In this document: in pieces, positions 1 to 36,175 of the stretch
How the letters are laid out: every line of letters begins with the position of its first letter
How positions within the stretch are numbered: position 1 is the first letter of the stretch
Source of the DNA: an uncultured Gammaproteobacteria bacterium
GTDB taxonomy: Bacteria; Patescibacteriota; Patescibacteriia; Magasanikbacterales; GWA2-37-8
Direction of reading: 5' to 3'
DNA length: 64,000 nucleotides
NCBI GenBank assembly: GCA_964540825.1
Contig: CAZINT010000002.1
Span: 128,993 to 192,992, forward strand
Program-made: the position numbers and the translations under genes
Notes under the pieces: generated by a model
The model's database searches: none
Told to the model about the DNA's origin: nothing
Seen by the model: only the letters and a program-made list of their open reading frames with translations

Positions 1-1279
1 CTTCACCGCGTACTGGAGACTGGAAGGCCAGCATTTTATCTTTTTCGATAACTTCTGCGACGCGCGCTTCGAGGTGATCATAGTTTGCCAAGCGTTTTAC
101 CTTTTTGTTTGGGTTGCCGGTCGTAATATCGCTTTTACCTAAAATAAGCAAATCATTAATTTCTTGCCCAGCATTAAAAATAAGGCGTCGCACTGCCGAA
201 TCAGTTACGCCTTCGTCCATCAGGGCTATTGGCTGCATATGCCAACGGACTAATTTTGCCAGGTAATTTGTATGTTCAGTCGACAAACGAAGACGTTTCG
301 CAAAAGCATAGACCATTTTGCGCCCGACATGTTCATGGGCATGAAACGTCCAGCCAATGCGCGGTATAAATCGTTTGGTAGCCGGCTTACCGATATCATG
401 AAGTAACCCCGCGAGGCGGAGCCAAACATTGTTCGAACGCAAGGCAATATTATCCACCACCTTGAAAGTATGATACAAATTATTTTTATGACTGTGACCA
501 TAGACATCCTCTACTCCATCGAGCGCCGCTATCTCCGGTAAAATAACATCCATTAATTTAGTCTGGAATAACAACAGAAAACCAATTGAAGGCTCGGGCG
601 TTGTGAGGAGTTTAAGCAGTTCTTCCTGAATGCGCTCGCCGGAAACTATTTTAATCCGTTCGCGGTTGCGATGAATTGCTTCAAGGGTAGCAGGCTCAAT
701 GCTAAACCGAAGCTGCGCCGCAAAACGAATAGCCCGGAGCATACGAAGCGGATCTTCGCTAAACGTAATGTCCGGGTCAAGTGGGGTACGCAAAATTTTA
801 TCTGCCAGATCTACTTTGCCGTTAAAAGGATCGATGACACCGGCAAAAAGCGCCTCAGCGGTCGGCACAACCTTTTTACCCCAAAGCGTAATAGGAATGG
901 CCATGGCGTTTACTGTAAAATCACGGCGTTCCAAGTCTTGCTCAAGTGTTGTTGCGGTAACTACGGGCTTGCGTGAATCAGCAGTATATTTTTCACTGCG
1001 CGCTCCAGCAAACTCAAGCTCGACGGCTTCACCACCTTCACCCAAGATATACCGCGCTGTATCAAAATCTGGAAACTCAATCAGACTTCCCTTTTGTTTA
1101 TACGCTTCATCAACAAGTTTGGCGAAAGCGAGACCGCTTCCTTCTACGACAAAATCATAATCTTTCTTTTCCACTCCGGTTAAAAAAAGATCACGAACAA
1201 AACCGCCGACCACAGAGACCGGCAGTTTACTTTTTTTTGAAATAGCGGCAATTTTCTTAAAGACTTTCTCGTATTCCAT
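1..1279 (-). CDS. cca: CCA-adding tRNA nucleotidyltransferase / poly(A) polymerase family enzyme with HD domain. It is 5'-complete at its 3' side and runs off the window start.
   Basis: The minus-strand translation begins MEYEKVFKKIAAISKKSKLPVSVVGGFVRD at the ATG at 1279..1277, giving the GG nucleotidyltransferase motif. Further downstream it reads ...LLHDIGKPAT...HAHEHVG..., an HD-domain signature. It is absent from the ORF track only because it runs off the window edge. Confidence 0.65.
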   Translation of the reverse strand, partial: MEYEKVFKKIAAISKKSKLPVSVVGGFVRDLFLTGVEKKDYDFVVEGSGLAFAKLVDEAYKQKGSLIEFPDFDTARYILGEGGEAVELEFAGARSEKYTADSRKPVVTATTLEQDLERRDFTVNAMAIPITLWGKKVVPTAEALFAGVIDPFNGKVDLADKILRTPLDPDITFSEDPLRMLRAIRFAAQLRFSIEPATLEAIHRNRERIKIVSGERIQEELLKLLTTPEPSIGFLLLFQTKLMDVILPEIAALDGVEDVYGHSHKNNLYHTFKVVDNIALRSNNVWLRLAGLLHDIGKPATKRFIPRIGWTFHAHEHVGRKMVYAFAKRLRLSTEHTNYLAKLVRWHMQPIALMDEGVTDSAVRRLIFNAGQEINDLLILGKSDITTGNPNKKVKRLANYDHLEARVAEVIEKDKMLAFQSPVRGE

Positions 1280-2419: not shown

Positions 2420-2656
2420 ATGAGCAGCTCAGAACCAAAACCGTCTAGCGGTAAGGCCGCGCGTGAACAGGTCAAGTTTTGCTGCCGCCTGTGTGGCCAT
2501 CACAGCTACACCGAAGTTCGCGCTCCCCGTCCTGTATGCCTCGGCGGACCTCGTAGCGCTTCACCCGAAGTGCTCCATTGCGTCTGCGACGGCTGCAGCG
2601 CAGTCTTCGTTGATCCAAAAAAATTCTCGGGATATATTCGCCCCGACCTTCCATAG
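2420..2656 (+). CDS. Small hypothetical zinc-ribbon protein with CxxC and CxCxxC motifs
   Basis: An AGGAGG sequence at 2408–2413 precedes the ATG at 2420. The product is Cys-rich (CCRLCGHH ... CVCDGC). Its GC is visibly higher than the flanking sequence. A 10-bp perfect inverted-repeat hairpin lies just downstream. Confidence 0.35.
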   Translation: MSSSEPKPSSGKAAREQVKFCCRLCGHHSYTEVRAPRPVCLGGPRSASPEVLHCVCDGCSAVFVDPKKFSGYIRPDLP

Positions 2657-2808: not shown

Positions 2809-2882
2809 CGGGTTGTAGCTCAGTTGGCTAGAGCGCTTGCATGGGGTGCAAGAGGTCGCAGGTTCAAGTCCTGTCAGCCCGA
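2809..2882 (+). tRNA. tRNA-Pro (anticodon GGG)
   Basis: The cloverleaf was folded by hand: acceptor CGGGTTG/CAGCCCG, D-stem GCTC/GAGC, anticodon stem CTTGC/GCAAG with loop ATGGGGT (U33, GGG, G37), T-arm GCAGG-TTCAAGT-CCTGT, discriminator A. It is 74 nt long and no CCA is encoded. Confidence 0.9.
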
Positions 2883-3062
2883 CACACACAAAACTTCAAA
2901 GATTTAAAAAAATGGCCATATTGCCGCTTTTTTAATACCACGTTTACTAGATGGCACCAAACAAAAAACCGGAGCCACACTCTACTTCCAAAATTTTAGA
3001 AATAAAGTGTAGAGACTCCGGTCTCTAGTACATCGCGCTACTGAGCGTATGGTGTAGGTAAA

Positions 3063-3095
3063 AAATGAACGGCACTTCAGAACTTAGTCTGAAGT
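3063..3095 (-). terminator. Hairpin ACTTCAGA–ACTTAG–TCTGAAGT with a T-run on the minus strand a few nt downstream; a weak terminator candidate for the minus-strand lipoprotein gene
   Basis: An 8-bp perfect stem is followed on the minus strand by TTTTTT after an 8-nt spacer. Confidence 0.3.
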
Positions 3096-3114
3096 GGATA
3101 GTTGGCAGGGCGGC

Positions 3115-3564
3115 CTAGCCGAGGGTGAAGTCGACCAGCTGAACACCCTTTGACGGATCGTAGGTGATCGTGGCGGGCTGCGCGAACACCGCGCTCTTCA
3201 CCACATCACCCTCCGCCTGGAGGGTCAGCGACTGTACCACCACTTCCCCCATCTGCGTCAGGCAGGGCGAGTAGTTCAGGATGGTGACATCGCCGATGCC
3301 GCCGAACGCGAAGGTGACGACGCGCTTCACAGGCGTACCACCGCGAGGGGTCTCGGTCACCGTGAGGACAGCGCTGTACACGCTGCCGGCCTTGTAGGTC
3401 GCCGCCGAACCGTCGTGGTTCTTTCCCCGGAACACTACAGACGGGTGCGTATCGGACAGGGGGGTCTGATCCGAGCACAACGCGACGGCGCTGCTCCCGG
3501 GAACTACCTCCAGGCAGCCAGCAAAAAGGAAACCACTCAGAGCCAACAGCATCGACTTCATCAT
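3115..3564 (-). CDS. Secreted lipoprotein of high-GC codon usage, function unknown
   Basis: The track ORF is 3115..3648. The likely true start is the MMKSMLLALSGFLFAGC... at 3564, with GGAG 9 nt upstream. The signal peptide carries the lipobox LFAGC. Third codon positions are strongly G/C, unlike the host locus. Confidence 0.6.
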   Translation of the reverse strand: MMKSMLLALSGFLFAGCLEVVPGSSAVALCSDQTPLSDTHPSVVFRGKNHDGSAATYKAGSVYSAVLTVTETPRGGTPVKRVVTFAFGGIGDVTILNYSPCLTQMGEVVVQSLTLQAEGDVVKSAVFAQPATITYDPSKGVQLVDFTLG

Positions 3565-3601
3565 CTTAGTAACTCCGATCAACACGAGACGGGATTGCCT
3601 C

Positions 3602-3641
3602 GGTACCATGGTTACAGAGTAAGTTCTGTAACCATGGTACC
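3602..3641. promoter_or_regulatory. Perfect 17-bp inverted repeat GGTACCATGGTTACAGA–GTAAGT–TCTGTAACCATGGTACC (nested ACCATGGT palindromes), a candidate operator lying in the divergent lipoprotein intergenic region
   Basis: Read directly from the sequence. It lies about 40 bp upstream of the minus-strand lipoprotein start codon and in the shared 5' region with the plus-strand lipoprotein gene. Confidence 0.5.
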
Positions 3642-3916
3642 CGGCCATTCCACTGTAACTGAAGGTGAATTTACTTTCGATTACGACAAATAGGCATATT
3701 ATAAAATCGGCTTTTTGTCAATATAACAGCTAAAAATAGCCTGACCGTATTTTCAAACTTTGGCACTAAAAAATAAAAATACAAAGCTTCTTCGTTTATT
3801 TTTTTGCTTAAATTAACAACTTTTACTTACTACCCTTGACAACGAGGGCGTTTTAAGGTAGCGTTTTTCCGCGTGGTAAAAGTGCCACGCTGCACACCCC
3901 TTGGAGGTACCTGTCC

Positions 3917-4567
3917 ATGAACCTGTTCACGAGAAGCTCTGGAACCACCGCCTTCGGCCTGATCCTCGGCCTCAGCACCCTCGGGTGCGGCGCGCCGCCC
4001 GTGGCCCCGCAGCCCGTCGACACGATCGTCAACACGCAGCCCGAGGACCTCCCGCCCGCCGACTCGAGCGGCCTGCACCGCGACGGGAACTGCCTCTGGA
4101 CGTGGGGCGACGGCAAGCAGATCTACACCAAGGTGGATGCGACCACCCTCAAGCCCTCGCCGGAAGCGACGGTCTTCGAGGGGTCGGGCGAGACCATCCA
4201 GCTCGCCCACCACTTCTTCCCCGACGGCGCCGTCGGCGGCACGCCCGCCTGGGACTTCAGCCTGCCCGCTGTCAGCCACGTCGAGCGCAAGTTCGGCTCG
4301 ACGCCCGCGACCCTCCTCCCGGCGCAGAACGGCAACCTGAGCTGGGTGGGGATGCAGGTGAACGCGACGCCCGACTTCGAGGGCGTCACCATGGCCTACC
4401 GGCTCTTCACCAGCGCCGGCGCAACCCCGGCCAAGGGCGTGAACGCCACCCCCAAGGAGCTGGAGGCGCCCTACACCGCGTGGTACGTCTTCTGCAAGGA
4501 GGCCATCGAGCCCACGAAGATCGAGGCCCTGAAGACCAAGGCCCCCTACGGCCGCACCCGCCGCTAG
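3917..4567 (+). CDS. Secreted lipoprotein with extreme-GC codon usage, function unknown
   Basis: GGAGG lies 9 nt upstream of the ATG. The N-terminus MNLFTRSSGTTAFGLILGLSTLGCG carries a lipobox. Nearly every third codon position is G/C (ctg, ttc, acg, ggc, ctc ...). Long antisense ORFs on both strands are artefacts of the stop-codon-poor GC-rich sequence. Confidence 0.65.
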   Translation: MNLFTRSSGTTAFGLILGLSTLGCGAPPVAPQPVDTIVNTQPEDLPPADSSGLHRDGNCLWTWGDGKQIYTKVDATTLKPSPEATVFEGSGETIQLAHHFFPDGAVGGTPAWDFSLPAVSHVERKFGSTPATLLPAQNGNLSWVGMQVNATPDFEGVTMAYRLFTSAGATPAKGVNATPKELEAPYTAWYVFCKEAIEPTKIEALKTKAPYGRTRR

Positions 4568-4627
4568 CGGGCGCACTACGACCAAAGTTCCGCTCATAGC
4601 CTCATAAACTAAGAGGTGGCGCGAACT

Positions 4628-4683
4628 GATTCCGCCCCCTCTACCACTACCTATTGTATGTAGCTAGTGGTAGGGGCGGAATC
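4628..4683. other. Long imperfect hairpin GATTCCGCCCCCTCTACCACTA ... TAGTGGTAGGGGCGGAATC, about 19 bp with a 3-nt bulge; a structured element at the right boundary of the GC-rich island
   Basis: The inverted repeat was read from the sequence. No adjacent U-tract on either strand. Confidence 0.4.
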
Positions 4684-4694
4684 TTTAAAAAAAT

Positions 4695-4723
4695 AACCTC
4701 GATTTAATCGAGGTTATTTTTTT
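4695..4723. terminator. Bidirectional rho-independent terminator: A7 – AACCTCGAT–TTA–ATCGAGGTT – T7
   Basis: A perfect 9-bp stem is flanked by an A-run upstream and a T-run downstream. Confidence 0.6.
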
Positions 4724-4768
4724 ACTTGCTAAGTGAAAAACGCTATGTTATTATTTTATTCGCCTACT

Positions 4769-4842
4769 CGGGCTATAGCGCAGTTGGCTAGCGCGCATCG
4801 TTCGGGACGATGAGGTCGTGGGTTCAAGTCCCACTAGCCCGA
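4769..4842 (+). tRNA. tRNA-Pro (anticodon CGG)
   Basis: The hand-folded cloverleaf has acceptor CGGGCTA/TAGCCCG, D-stem GCGC/GCGC, anticodon stem CATCG/CGATG with loop TTCGGGA (U33, CGG, G37) and T-arm GTGGG-TTCAAGT-CCCAC. It is 74 nt long. Confidence 0.9.
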
Positions 4843-4854
4843 CAATAACAAAAA

Positions 4855-4883: not shown

Positions 4884-4972
4884 AATTATGCAAATATTTT
4901 TACGCTAAAGCTTATTTTACTTTTTAAGCAAAATAACATACATTGTGTCTAGACAAGTACCAGGAGGTAACC

Positions 4973-5326
4973 GTGTTTAATCATGAAGATTTTGCATGCA
5001 ACTTCACGCTTCATGGACTTGAGCTCAAAGCCGTCGGTTTTCTAAAGCCTGATGAGGAATTTTGTCCCGGCGAAGAGATGCTGCGCCGCGCCACGAGCGA
5101 TACTTGGCAACCAGTCGAGGCTGCGGAAGGAAAAATAATTTTGGACCACGCGCAAGAACTTCCCTTCGACTTATGTGACAAGCGGCTTGTGCTTGGATGG
5201 TTAAACGAAACTACCCGCACACTTGTTTGCTTCGGTTGGGAAGCTGGGCGTTGGTATTATTTTGGAGATTACATACGGCTCGGCTTCAATGATACGTATG
5301 TTGTCCTTTGTTCACGCCGACAATAA
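4973..5326 (+). CDS. Hypothetical protein
   Basis: AGGAGG at 4962–4967 precedes a GTG at 4973 (the track gives an upstream alternative start at 4943). No recognisable motifs. The 10-bp palindrome TGTCTAGACA at 4946–4955 lies just upstream. Confidence 0.4.
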   Translation: MFNHEDFACNFTLHGLELKAVGFLKPDEEFCPGEEMLRRATSDTWQPVEAAEGKIILDHAQELPFDLCDKRLVLGWLNETTRTLVCFGWEAGRWYYFGDYIRLGFNDTYVVLCSRRQ

Positions 5327-5330
5327 AAAG

Positions 5331-5360
5331 AAGCGCACCGGATTCGTCCGGCGCGCTTCT
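5331..5360 (-). terminator. Hairpin GAAGCGCACCGGA–TTCG–TCCGGCGCGCTTC with a T-run on the minus strand; a terminator for membrane-protein gene 5416..6621 and possibly bidirectional
   Basis: A 13-bp stem with one mismatch and a TTCG tetraloop. On the minus strand it is followed by TTTTTATTG. Confidence 0.5.
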
Positions 5361-10704: not shown

Positions 10705-11592
10705 CTAACGCTCAATGGCATTTCTGAATTTAAAAATTTTTTCAGCGCTTAGTAAGCTATACAGCCAAACTACCAAAATGCTTAGTGGACTCAAAATTTG
10801 CAGCACAAATGCTTGGTAGGGCTTATGCCATTTCTTAAAATAAATGACTGCGCTTTTGAGAAACTGCTTTTGTCGCCTCACATGATTAACTTGTTTGAAA
10901 GACTGCCCCATATAATCCACGCACGATACGTGACTCAAATAATACACCTCCCAGCCTAAACGCTTGGCTTCTTTGCAAATATCGACATCTTCAAACCAAA
11001 TAAAATACCGCGGATCAAAAGCAAAACCTAGCTGCTTAACTAGTGTTCGGCGCATCAGAAAGCACGACCCTCGAACAGTATCGACACGCGCCGGCTCGCT
11101 ATCAGGCGGAAGCATATAACACCATCTTCCTAGTAATTTTGGGTAAAAAACCGGCAGCTTAAAAATAATGGCCATGAGCTGACTGAACGAAGGAAAAAGT
11201 GATGGCCTAAGAACCAGGCGGTTTTCACCCTGCTCGTTTACCAATCGGCACCCGACAATTGCTGTTTGAGCATTGGCGTCTAAAAATTTTTTCATTTCAA
11301 GCACGCTAGCACCAGACACTTCCATGTCGGGATTGAGAAATAAAAAATAATTTCCTTGCGCCCCTTTAAGTGCTTGATTGTTAGCTGCCGCAAAACCAAC
11401 ATTTTTGGTATTTTGTATTAAGGTAACCTCGGAAAATTGCTGGGAAATAATAGCGGCAGTGTTGTCGCTCGAACCATTGTCAACTACAACATGTTCGTAC
11501 GATAACCCACGCAGTGCCCGCCTGACAGAATCAAGCTGCCGGGCAATATGTCCGGCAGAATTCCAGGTGACTGTAATAACGGAAATATCCAT
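10705..11592 (-). CDS. Glycosyltransferase family 2
   Basis: The sequences ISVITVTWNSAGHI and VVDNGSSDNT match the GT2 fold. Confidence 0.8.
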   Translation of the reverse strand: MDISVITVTWNSAGHIARQLDSVRRALRGLSYEHVVVDNGSSDNTAAIISQQFSEVTLIQNTKNVGFAAANNQALKGAQGNYFLFLNPDMEVSGASVLEMKKFLDANAQTAIVGCRLVNEQGENRLVLRPSLFPSFSQLMAIIFKLPVFYPKLLGRWCYMLPPDSEPARVDTVRGSCFLMRRTLVKQLGFAFDPRYFIWFEDVDICKEAKRLGWEVYYLSHVSCVDYMGQSFKQVNHVRRQKQFLKSAVIYFKKWHKPYQAFVLQILSPLSILVVWLYSLLSAEKIFKFRNAIER

Positions 11593-11594
11593 AA

Positions 11595-12668
11595 TTATTT
11601 TTTGAGTGCTGCTTTGAAAAAATCGACAACTGGAATAGCCGTTGGATCAATGCCTTCGAGGAGCGCTGAATAGTAACTGGCATAACTGGTAAGGAGCAGC
11701 ACTTCAAAAACTTGGGCCAAAGCATTTTTTTCTTGAGCCACATACGAAACAACAGGAATTTTGCGTTTATCTAAAATCTGTTTGCCGACTTCATATCGTT
11801 TTTGGATACGTTTATCGTAAAGACGTGACTCAACAAAAACAAACAATAGATTCTGAGCGTTAGTTTTAGGATACAATAGCCCTTCCATGAGGTGGTGATT
11901 GAGTTCTGGCACCAAAAAGTACCCCGCAAATCGTTTGGCATTTTCGTTCATCTGGTTGGCGCCGATATGCACATTCCCGGCCAAATGCTCACTGGCAGCA
12001 TACCACACCGTTTTACCGACCGTGCCCCAAGCGAGCGCTTTGGCAAAATTATTACCGCTTTCTGCAGCAACACCGAATAAAGCGCCGTATTTGGCAATAG
12101 CTGAAAGAATTATTTTTATTTCTTTGTCGCCAAACGTAATGAGGCCGGCTGCAGCAAAAATAAGCAGCTGTCCGACTATCGAATACCCCAACCCCATGCG
12201 CGGCGAACCGCACGGATTATTTTCGGTTGTAAATAAAAAGCTGGGTAGTTTGTTTTTTTCAGCCCATGTTTTGAGTGTTCCGCCCGAAGAAATAGTAACC
12301 ACTTTCGCTTTTTTAGCGAGCGCTTCTTTGCCAGCAGCGACCGGCTCTTCGGTTGTTCCTGAATAACTGGAAACAATTACCAGCGTATCTTTTGATGCCG
12401 AAGCTGGCACATGGTACCCATTAATAATGTCTACGGGAACCTGAAGCGAGTTTGCGTAAAGCGCTTTTATAACATGCGAACCGAGCGTTGAGCCGCCCAT
12501 ACCAAGCACAATCACATTCTTAATGTTTGCATATGCTTTAGGAAGCGTAAAACGCTTACCGGAAGTAATTTGCTCAACCTGCTTACCCAAGAGCTCTAAA
12601 CTTCCGAGCATGTTTTGCGTATCTAATTTTTTTATTTTTTCACGCGAGTTGAGAATTGCCTGATGCAT
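11595..12668 (-). CDS. Bifunctional phosphoglucose/phosphomannose isomerase (archaeal-type SIS-domain PGI/PMI)
   Basis: 357 aa with SIS-domain features (VIVLGMGGSTLGSH ... VIVSSYSGTTEE). Its length and architecture match the PGI/PMI family that supplies Man-6-P and Fru-6-P. Confidence 0.65.
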   Translation of the reverse strand: MHQAILNSREKIKKLDTQNMLGSLELLGKQVEQITSGKRFTLPKAYANIKNVIVLGMGGSTLGSHVIKALYANSLQVPVDIINGYHVPASASKDTLVIVSSYSGTTEEPVAAGKEALAKKAKVVTISSGGTLKTWAEKNKLPSFLFTTENNPCGSPRMGLGYSIVGQLLIFAAAGLITFGDKEIKIILSAIAKYGALFGVAAESGNNFAKALAWGTVGKTVWYAASEHLAGNVHIGANQMNENAKRFAGYFLVPELNHHLMEGLLYPKTNAQNLLFVFVESRLYDKRIQKRYEVGKQILDKRKIPVVSYVAQEKNALAQVFEVLLLTSYASYYSALLEGIDPTAIPVVDFFKAALKK

Positions 12669-35611: not shown

Positions 35612-36175
35612 CTAGCGCGAGAGCTTGTACCCGAGATGAGGAAGGGAGCGGGTGGTCGCCGCGACCGAGAAGGTCTCGGTGGTCTCGCCGCCGAGGACGC
35701 GACCCAGCCAGTCTTCGAGCGGTATGCTGACGACCTCGATCTCGACCTCCTCGCTGTCGGGGGTGGGCTCACCCTCGAGCACGCACTCAAGTGCGAGGTA
35801 GAGCTGGACCCGTCCGCTCGAGTGTCGCGGGATGATGTCGACGTGTCCGAGGTCGATGAGCTGCCCCGCACGGTGGCCGGTCTCCTCCCTGACCTCGCGC
35901 CGCGCCGCCTCGTTGAGCGACTCTCCATCGTTGCAGTAGCCGCCCACGAGGCCGATCTGGATGCGGTCTGCACCCTGCTTGTACTCGCGTACGGCGAGCA
36001 CATTTAGATCGACAGTCACCGGCAGGACAACTACCGAATCCTGCAAGGTGTAGAGATAGAAATCATGCACCTTTCCGAACGGGTCCTCGAAGTCCTGGTG
36101 CACGATCTGCTTGCCATAGTGGCGCGGGCCTATGGGAACTGCTTCACCTACTTTTTTCCACCGTCGTACTGCCAT
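35612..36175 (-). CDS. NUDIX hydrolase with high-GC codon usage
   Basis: The Nudix box reads GGYCNDGESLNEAARREVREETG. The length is 187 aa. The GC content and GC3 are markedly higher than in neighbouring genes. Long antisense ORFs here are GC artefacts. Confidence 0.8.
   Translation of the reverse strand: MAVRRWKKVGEAVPIGPRHYGKQIVHQDFEDPFGKVHDFYLYTLQDSVVVLPVTVDLNVLAVREYKQGADRIQIGLVGGYCNDGESLNEAARREVREETGHRAGQLIDLGHVDIIPRHSSGRVQLYLALECVLEGEPTPDSEEVEIEVVSIPLEDWLGRVLGGETTETFSVAATTRSLPHLGYKLSR

Follow-up and report, generated by a model that had tools for sequence, protein, structure and literature searches.

An islet of lipoprotein genes with extreme third-position GC content between two tRNA-Pro genes of a Patescibacteria genome

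Background

Does codon usage that clashes with the rest of a genome mean that a gene has arrived recently? Atypical GC content at third codon positions (GC3) is routinely taken as a time stamp of recent transfer. The question is raised by a 64-kb stretch of contig CAZINT010000002.1 (assembly GCA_964540825.1; this whole stretch of analysed DNA is called the window), where two genes for predicted lipoproteins, LP1 and LP2, form a divergent pair bracketed by tRNA-Pro(GGG) and tRNA-Pro(CGG). A first-pass annotation of the sequence had described this islet, 1.9 kb in length, as a compositionally foreign island and had proposed acquisition from a high-GC host. No paper on such a pattern in Patescibacteria was found in the literature.

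We wondered if the islet is indeed a recent import. The explanation that we consider best as a whole, with a probability of roughly 0.55, is that of an old islet without integrase, which was imported from a high-GC source and whose GC3 is held by a force confined to coding sequences.

Results and discussion

Borders and composition of the islet

The left border of the islet is formed by tRNA-Pro(GGG) (2809-2883, plus strand; 63 bits in Rfam), the right one by tRNA-Pro(CGG) (4769-4843, plus strand; 68 bits). According to both ARAGORN and Rfam these are the only tRNA genes in the window, which confirms the exact position between them that had been assigned to the island. The only open reading frames (ORFs) between the tRNA-Pro genes are LP1 (3115-3564, minus strand, 149 amino acids (aa)), LP2 (3917-4567, plus strand, 216 aa) and antisense shadows of both.

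GC content amounts to 0.63 in LP1 (0.60/0.47/0.81 at first, second and third codon positions, GC1/GC2/GC3) and to 0.70 in LP2 (0.60/0.53/0.97). Median GC3 of the 51 window ORFs of at least 200 aa is 0.40, and native genes range from 0.33 to 0.48. Both LP1 and LP2 are far outside the native GC3 distribution; the codon statistics do differ, and the description of a GC3-extreme, foreign-looking island stands. GC1 and GC2 of the islet genes exceed native values as well (native GC2 is 0.29-0.40, compared with 0.53 in LP2), and amino-acid composition is shifted, being rich in Ala, Gly, Pro and Thr and poor in Ile and Lys. Third positions had been called almost exclusively G or C. This is true for LP2, where 7 of 216 codons end in A or T, and only loosely for LP1 (28 of 149). 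The surroundings are AT-rich as claimed, with a background of 43% GC (43.4% for the whole window) and not 40%. The three non-coding spacers of the islet have a GC content of 0.40-0.42.

Codon choice in LP2 is one-sided: TTC (10:0), AAG (10:0), ATC (6:0), AAC (7:0) and TAC (5:0) are used without exception, and all 20 proline codons are CCC or CCG. In native genes the synonymous alternatives prevail (TTT 87%, AAA 75%, ATT 63%, AAT 70%, TAT 69%). The favoured codons of LP2 all end in G or C, including AAG, GAG and CAG, which is the reverse of the usage of its own genome.

No direct repeats flank the islet besides the tRNA pair itself, that is, two complete and different genes with 74% identity over 86 nt. 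Attachment-type (att) direct repeats duplicating a tRNA 3' end were not found at the islet borders, and Pfam annotation of the syntenic locus in a second genome (see below) contains no integrase or transposase within approximately 10 kb to each side. The first-pass annotation was thus right in noting the lack of integrase, transposase and direct repeats.

The abrupt switch of composition and the repeat-like nature of the flanking tRNA genes are also what could be expected of an assembly or binning chimera, in which high-GC reads were joined to an AT-rich scaffold. The Logan contig from run SRR11567520 does break exactly in the two similar tRNA genes, and only there. Nevertheless, this contig is 100% identical to window positions 2815-4798 and covers all AT/GC junctions, and those from SRR11567528 and SRR12901024 likewise match with 100% identity where AT-rich sequence meets GC-rich sequence, so that independent unitig-based assemblies of three runs agree at every one of them. 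The junctions coincide with start and stop codons, with Shine-Dalgarno sequence and terminator-like hairpin in place. Finally, an orthologous mosaic exists in a second species, in an NCBI genome and in two further runs. The misassembly that had been kept as an option is contradicted by these data, and its chance appears negligible.

Conservation of the islet in a second genome

The second genome is the metagenome-assembled genome GCA_964510495.1 (contig CAZECR010000002.1), whose locus, hereafter L003, was also detected in runs SRR12762304 and ERR8482638. L003 is collinear with the window, native segments showing 79-82% DNA identity. The common order is PilT, a Zn-ribbon gene, tRNA-Pro(GGG), the islet, tRNA-Pro(CGG), a membrane protein (401/429 aa), a nucleotidyltransferase and glycosyltransferases.

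The L003 islet comprises four GC-rich genes with AT-rich spacers between them. These are orthologues of LP1 (85% amino-acid identity) and of LP2 (P0002, 79% identity), a tandem paralogue of LP2 (P0003, 39% identity to LP2) and an extra 176-aa gene, g176, with GC3 of 0.81. Duplication of LP2 took in the promoter region and the terminator along with the gene. Relationship of g176 to window ORF 4943-5326 was considered and rejected, as the two have no similarity.

Synonymous changes in islet and native genes

Synonymous divergence (dS) between the window and L003 is 1.3-1.8 in native neighbours, 0.25 in LP1 and 0.29 in LP2. Such low values in the islet could mean either that it is younger or that its synonymous sites are constrained. 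The kinds of change discriminate between these options.

At fourfold degenerate sites, LP2 displays 16 differences between G and C and 3 between G/C (strong, S) and A/T (weak, W); the corresponding counts are 7 and 9 in LP1 and 36 and 251 in four native genes. The contrast between LP2 and native genes is pronounced (Fisher p = 3e-11). Twofold sites, where all synonymous changes are of the S<->W type, changed in 6% of cases in LP2, 11% in LP1 and 27% in the four native genes (p = 6e-5 for the twofold contrast). Among third-position differences, G<->C transversions account for 61% in LP2 vs approximately 7-10% in native genes, and the islet spacers exhibit an ordinary spectrum (54% transitions, 10% G<->C). 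Native fourfold counts give a neutral ratio of at minimum 3.5 S->W changes per S->S change. Under the native ratio, the binomial probability of observing at most 3 S<->W changes among the 19 in LP2 is 2e-8; for LP1, P = 0.046.

The number of G<->C differences per G/C-ending fourfold site is 0.17 in LP2, 0.11 in LP1 and 0.16 in native genes. With LP2 equal to native genes and LP1 somewhat lower, the islet looks as old as its flanks. The simplest reading of the compared sequences is that the window genome and GCA_964510495.1 inherited the islet from their common ancestor, and that it would have gathered G<->C changes at the neutral rate, G/C-to-A/T changes being removed. A force specific to these genes thus appears to hold GC3 high. 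To keep GC3 at 0.94-0.97 vs an equilibrium of 0.40, a scaled directional force of approximately 3-4 is needed, and scaled selection of this size appears unusually high for codon-usage selection. Within the L003 islet, the LP2 orthologue has GC3 of 0.94, the tandem paralogue 300 bp away 0.81 and the spacers 0.40. Such differences between close paralogues, next to spacers of 40% GC, make regional mutation bias or ordinary GC-biased conversion unlikely.

Alternatively, the islet might be younger than the split of the two genomes and might have been passed between Patescibacteria lineages, for example by transformation and recombination anchored in the tRNA-Pro genes. A five- to sixfold reduction of dS relative to the neighbours would follow directly. 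The two genomes agree at 95% of positions in the flanking tRNAs (tRNA-Pro(GGG) and its L003 copy), A/T-ending codon positions are largely common to the orthologues, cargo differs among relatives (see below), so the site turns over, and a gene for a PilT-type ATPase adjoins it. On the other hand, G<->C change per S-ending site equals the native value in LP2, which fits equal age, and the excess of G<->C differences in this gene would require an implausible share of such mutations in a young islet. The spacers are approximately 18% divergent overall, with conserved blocks interspersed, and some stretches differ like the flanks. Above all, movement of the islet between lineages after their split would not do away with the deficit of S->W changes, for which a force holding GC3 would still be demanded. 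We therefore consider exchange after the split rather unlikely and favour an islet that predates it.

The tRNA-Pro spacer as a site of variable cargo

More distant relatives were located by means of the 401-aa neighbour protein in species-representative genomes and in Joint Genome Institute (JGI) metagenomes. They are recorded under Patescibacteria or Saccharibacteria, in some cases with a doubtful 'Gammaproteobacteria' label. In two of these loci, L009 and L017, the tRNA-Pro genes lie 107 bp apart beside PilT, with no cargo. In another one, L006, the tRNA-Pro pair encloses a single unrelated gene coding for a fatty-acid desaturase (GC3 0.72 vs a background of 0.51). No remnants of LP1 or LP2 were detected in any other locus compared. 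With L009 and L017 empty and a desaturase in L006, the tRNA-Pro spacer is a site with turnover of cargo, which is GC-rich each time; the synteny comparison thus agrees with the earlier suggestion of a tRNA-linked insertion hot spot. Single GC-rich genes seem to recur in the clade.

Several observations were made on these loci and genes. A Nudix hydrolase gene of the window (35612-36175, minus strand; Pfam NUDIX, E = 5e-14), flanked by an aminotransferase gene on one side and an epimerase gene on the other, is another GC3 outlier (0.78 vs 0.40), so the islet is not the sole compositional outlier in the window. In L016 (JGI Ga0114944_1010098), a different gene with GC3 of 0.90 (12-647, plus strand), cut by the contig end, adjoins the gene for the 401-aa membrane protein. 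In L006, the order of GGG and CGG tRNA-Pro genes (11206-11280 and 12471-12545) is swapped relative to the flanks, and the CGG gene bears acceptor and T arms of the window GGG gene. This suggests an exchange of anticodon arms or gene conversion between tRNA-Pro genes.

Search for a donor and origin of the coding sequences

A word-indexed search of 5.8 billion proteins retrieved only LP2, P0002 and P0003 with LP2 as query, and only itself with LP1. A profile search likewise yielded no copies other than those of the lineage, and HMMER, run exhaustively on 1.84 billion representatives, contributed nothing further but two weak matches in giant proteins. JGI metagenomes, plasmids and viral contigs (IMG/VR) contained no relatives of LP1 or LP2 outside the lineage, and in clusters at 90% identity all are singletons. 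An actinobacterial or other high-GC donor, as suggested by the first-pass annotation, thus has no support from homology, there being no relatives outside the lineage among 1.8-5.8 billion proteins.

If the genes had come recently from a high-GC (actinobacterial) host of an episymbiont, their GC3 would be an undecayed signature of import. This idea accommodates the rise of GC1, GC2 and GC3 alike, the insertion between tRNA genes that distant relatives have side by side, the presence of other unrelated GC-rich single genes in the clade (Nudix, desaturase, g176 and the L016 gene) and the similarity of LP2 to DUF3455, a family of secreted proteins that the retrieved papers mention mainly for fungal secretomes (see below). 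In addition to the lack of homologues and the singleton clusters, three facts contradict it. A genome that is only approximately 80% identical, and in which native synonymous sites are saturated, has the orthologous islet together with its AT-rich spacers. Synonymous differences are mostly G<->C and not the G/C-to-A/T changes expected of decay. Moreover, a contiguous high-GC import would not bring promoters and terminators of 40% GC. The composition appears to be maintained, not fading, and recent acquisition is improbable.

Foreign origin as such is nevertheless the best reading for the LP1 and LP2 coding sequences, because the site is empty or otherwise filled in relatives, because the deviation extends to GC1, GC2 and amino-acid composition, and because the clade has further, unrelated gene families that deviate in the same manner. 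All three points speak against a history without any transfer, in which native, lineage-specific genes had their GC3 raised in place by selection or GC-biased gene conversion: the anomaly in several unrelated families is easier to obtain by import, and biased gene conversion would not halt at start and stop codons. Such a history would explain why the families are restricted to the lineage and why promoters, leaders and terminators are native in composition and were duplicated with the gene in L003. It would also agree with GC3 maintenance being demonstrably ongoing and with the unequal GC3 of the adjacent paralogues. On balance, a purely native origin is quite unlikely. Under the preferred foreign origin, promoters and terminators of native composition mean that either only coding sequence was kept from the import, or non-coding parts were rebuilt while the coding sequence was held.

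LP1 and LP2 proteins

LP1 and LP2, their orthologues and the paralogue are all predicted to possess an N-terminal signal peptide that ends in a lipobox. The lipoboxes of LP1 and LP2 (MMKSMLLALSGFLFAGC and ...LGLSTLGC), as well as those of both orthologues and of the paralogue, match a PROSITE-style pattern, and the lipobox Cys is invariant in the alignment of orthologues and paralogue. The assignment of both divergent genes to lipoproteins in the first-pass annotation is in agreement with these predictions, and we infer from the sequences that LP1 and LP2 are lipid-anchored surface proteins.

LP1 represents an orphan family: it matched no Pfam or NCBIfam family, and its structure model is an all-beta sandwich. 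LP2 is a distant member of Pfam DUF3455 (PF11937; 39.6 bits at a cut-off of 25, E = 9.4e-10), the match spanning LP2 residues 91-192 and profile positions 62-155 of 157. Pfam gave no match for the paralogue P0003, and whole-database searches with LP2 returned no significant DUF3455 protein. In the papers retrieved, DUF3455, a family without assigned function, is mentioned mainly among secreted fungal proteins (secretome lists). LP1 and LP2 themselves were considered as paralogues; this was rejected, because there is no similarity between them.

The ratio of non-synonymous to synonymous divergence (dN/dS) between the window and L003 is 0.32-0.44 for LP1 and LP2 vs 0.02-0.13 for native genes. 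Fast evolution and copy-number variation would suit proteins that work on the cell surface, possibly where it meets a host.

An antisense ORF of 89 aa is located inside LP2 (window 4123-4392, minus strand; L003 9250-9519, minus strand). It is open in both genomes and shares the third codon positions of LP2 (GC3 0.97). Most likely, it is a by-product of sense-strand conservation.

Putative transcription units and gene calls

A promoter-like site of LP1 (3690-3721, minus strand; TTGACA, 17 nt, TATGCC) is conserved in L003. It is followed by a hairpin in the 5' leader (3602-3641, minus strand) with a perfect 17-bp stem (inverted repeat I1; fold z = -5.0). This hairpin lies within the longer, 177-aa ORF reported by gene callers. 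In L003 its stem carries a compensatory change from C:G to T:A, which speaks for a hairpin in RNA or DNA rather than for coding sequence, and hence for a start at 3564. The start at 3648 in public gene calls, giving the 177-aa protein, was rejected since the extension overlaps this hairpin. The 3' untranslated region of LP1 (2965-3114, minus strand) contains two strong hairpins, the second of which is a terminator-like stem-loop of 55 nt followed by a U-run. The region folds with -52.6 kcal/mol (z = -6.7), and terminator-like matches are present. This block is approximately 98% identical to L003, the rest of the spacer (2884-2960) being far less conserved.

Complementarity exists between the loops of the first 3' hairpin of LP1 (3078-3091) and of its 5' leader hairpin (3615-3628; 14 nt, 93%), and the difference found in these loops in L003 would make one pair G-U. 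The ends of LP1 mRNA might be in mutual contact via these loops, or the complementarity might be due to chance.

LP2 is preceded by a promoter-like site (3835-3864, plus strand; CTTGACA, 17 nt, TAGCGT) and by a Shine-Dalgarno sequence, GGAGG. The promoter-like site is kept in L003, including upstream of the paralogue. The 3' untranslated region of LP2 (4586-4724, plus strand) comprises three hairpins with inverted repeats I2 and I5, among them a GC-rich stem-loop of 56 nt (4628-4683) and a perfect 19-bp stem (4686-4724) with A and T runs on either side, reminiscent of a bidirectional terminator. Folding energy is -73.2 kcal/mol (z = -11.9). These hairpins are kept in L003, and a second copy occurs downstream of the L003 paralogue.

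Similar signals accompany other GC-rich genes. The pattern CTTGACA-N17-TANNNT has two occurrences in the window, before LP2 and before the Nudix gene (CTTGACA-N17-TATGCT), and the 12-mer TTGACAAAAAGC is common to the promoters of LP1 and of the Nudix gene. TTGACA, a 17-nt spacer, a TAnnnT-like hexamer and a GGAG(G) ribosome-binding site (RBS) precede every GC-rich gene examined, namely LP1, LP2, the L003 paralogue, g176, the window Nudix gene and the L006 desaturase gene. Comparison of the window with L003 reveals that hairpin and promoter blocks are almost invariant and that other parts of the spacers are much more divergent. With 40-42% GC, sigma-70-type promoter matches and hairpin terminators, these regions are native-like, as the first-pass annotation had stated. 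From the sequences, LP1 and LP2 are inferred to be transcribed as autonomous units.

Other explanations of the hairpins and of the high GC content were tried. An origin from REP-like repeated elements was rejected because each hairpin is single-copy in the window. A structured RNA was rejected too: at gathering thresholds the two tRNAs are the sole Rfam matches, and relaxing the limit to E <= 1 brings up no credible candidate. The long, imperfect palindrome after each gene recalls integron cassettes, a reading that was dropped in view of divergent genes with their own promoters and without integrase; inspection of the islet, made without a formal test, revealed no core motifs of the integron recombination site attC.

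High GC3 leaves long open frames on the antisense strand, by which gene callers are misled. In public gene calls of GCA_964510495.1, three of the four islet genes are placed on the antisense strand (L003 7382-7921, 8212-8814 and 9014-9703), and an antisense frame in the window (3830-4597, minus strand) stands opposite LP2. The NCBI protein set does not include LP2 of the window genome, which occurs in Logan alone. In practice, public gene calls thus misplace several islet genes on the wrong strand.

A possible history of the islet

The following history would account for these results. In a Patescibacteria (Saccharibacteria-like) genome, the islet would occupy the spacer of an ancestrally adjacent pair of tRNA-Pro(GGG) and tRNA-Pro(CGG). 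It would consist of two divergent, self-contained units, each with a TTGACA-N17 promoter-like site, a GGAGG-type RBS and strong hairpin terminators, and each probably giving rise to a fast-evolving, lineage-restricted surface lipoprotein, the beta-sandwich orphan LP1 and the DUF3455-like LP2. The coding sequences most likely came from a high-GC source before divergence of the window genome and GCA_964510495.1, and not recently. Afterwards, a force confined to coding sequences would purge nearly all synonymous changes from G/C to A/T, with G<->C changes accumulating neutrally. Purging of this kind would leave GC3 at 0.81-0.97 beside spacers of 40% GC.

The force would presumably be selection on the mRNA or on its translation. 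We favour, as a speculation, that a GC-rich body between stable, conserved 5' and 3' hairpins might resist AU-preferring ribonucleases and so yield a long-lived mRNA. Equally speculatively, the codon set might make expression depend on how many G/C-decoding tRNAs are available, or reflect an unusual decoding pattern. The proteins would act at the cell surface, plausibly in host contact.

A bolder form of this thinking can be offered tentatively, as a possibility to which we give less credence than to the history above. A gene-specific regime that ends at the boundaries of coding sequences might keep a few accessory genes for the surface or host interface of an AT-rich episymbiont with a reduced genome at near-saturated GC3 through long periods of evolution, in which case the 'foreign' codon usage would itself be a selected trait. 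It could serve as a switch tied to rare G/C-decoding tRNAs, including the flanking tRNA-Pro pair, which would read the 20 proline codons of LP2, or it could give, together with the conserved hairpins at both ends, mRNAs of exceptionally long life.

A number of points weigh against the old, maintained islet that we prefer. The substitution comparison concerns one pair of genomes with 35 informative fourfold differences, and the native genes that serve as clock are near saturation. A/T-ending codon positions shared by the LP1 orthologues (17 of 28) fit a younger islet ancestor too; this retention resembles native third-position identity (approximately 55%). The case for foreign origin consists of composition and of presence or absence at the site, and loss from the outgroups is possible. 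As to the products and signals, the structure model of LP2 has a predicted local distance difference test score (pLDDT) of 30, and fold matches of the LP1 model are generic. Lipidation, promoters and terminators were called by pattern match, and in generic terminator and promoter scans matches were no more numerous than in shuffled sequence.

Comparison with known systems

The locus can be classed with tRNA-linked islets; it is small and carries accessory genes for predicted surface lipoproteins. It resembles tRNA-associated islands in abutting on tRNA genes, in atypical composition, in variable presence and cargo and in coding for accessory surface proteins. It differs from them by the lack of integrase, tRNA-derived att repeats and mobility genes, by its location between two complete, different tRNA-Pro genes and by its length of only 1.9 kb. 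In addition, the anomaly is confined to coding sequences and is persistent through speciation.

Phage morons are autonomous units of promoter, gene and terminator with deviant composition, inserted between conserved genes, and many of them encode lipoproteins. Islet genes are similar to them in deviant composition and conserved neighbours, and may be so in transcription, as each has a promoter-like site and a predicted hairpin terminator of its own. Unlike morons, they are not situated in a prophage, their neighbours being PilT, tRNAs, the membrane protein and glycosyltransferases. They have no relatives in IMG/VR, and their flanking non-coding parts have host composition.

LP2 is comparable to DUF3455 proteins, as it scores above the gathering threshold and is predicted to be exported. 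On the contrary, the match is very distant, LP2 is predicted to be lipid-anchored and comes from Patescibacteria, and its paralogue lacks a Pfam match. With codon-usage selection in highly expressed genes, the LP genes have in common low dS, extreme bias and the purging of one class of changes. The G/C endings favoured in LP2, however, oppose the usage of its genome.

Significance

The unusual part of these results is long-term extreme GC3, confined to coding sequences, in an AT-rich reduced genome. GC3 of the islet persists across a species split with saturated neutral sites, and precisely those changes are lacking by which it would be wiped out. Calling a transfer recent on the grounds of composition can thus be badly wrong. 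Selection on synonymous sites is usually assumed to be weak in symbionts with small genomes. If confirmed in more genomes, the islet would provide a clean natural case in which strong selection, or some other directional force, acts on synonymous positions in a handful of genes of such a symbiont. The tRNA-Pro spacer with its two orphan lipoproteins makes up a fast-changing surface-protein locus of a Saccharibacteria-like lineage and a sensible place to search for host-contact factors.

Other features next to the islet

Just upstream of tRNA-Pro(GGG), a small ORF (2420-2656, plus strand; GC 0.57) encodes a Zn-ribbon-like protein (CxxC ... CxCxxC) and is followed by a hairpin. The ORF matched no family, a weak, sub-threshold resemblance to ribosomal protein L37e being all that was seen, and it is kept in L003 with 66% amino-acid identity.

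On the other side, a 16-nt direct repeat (4839-4854 and 5317-5332) brackets ORF 4973-5326 (117 aa, no family). Its copies are CCGACAATAACAAAAA, which takes in the 3' end of tRNA-Pro(CGG), and CCGACAATAAAAAGAA. The repeat could be an att-like duplication left by a second tiny insertion, or it could have arisen by chance.

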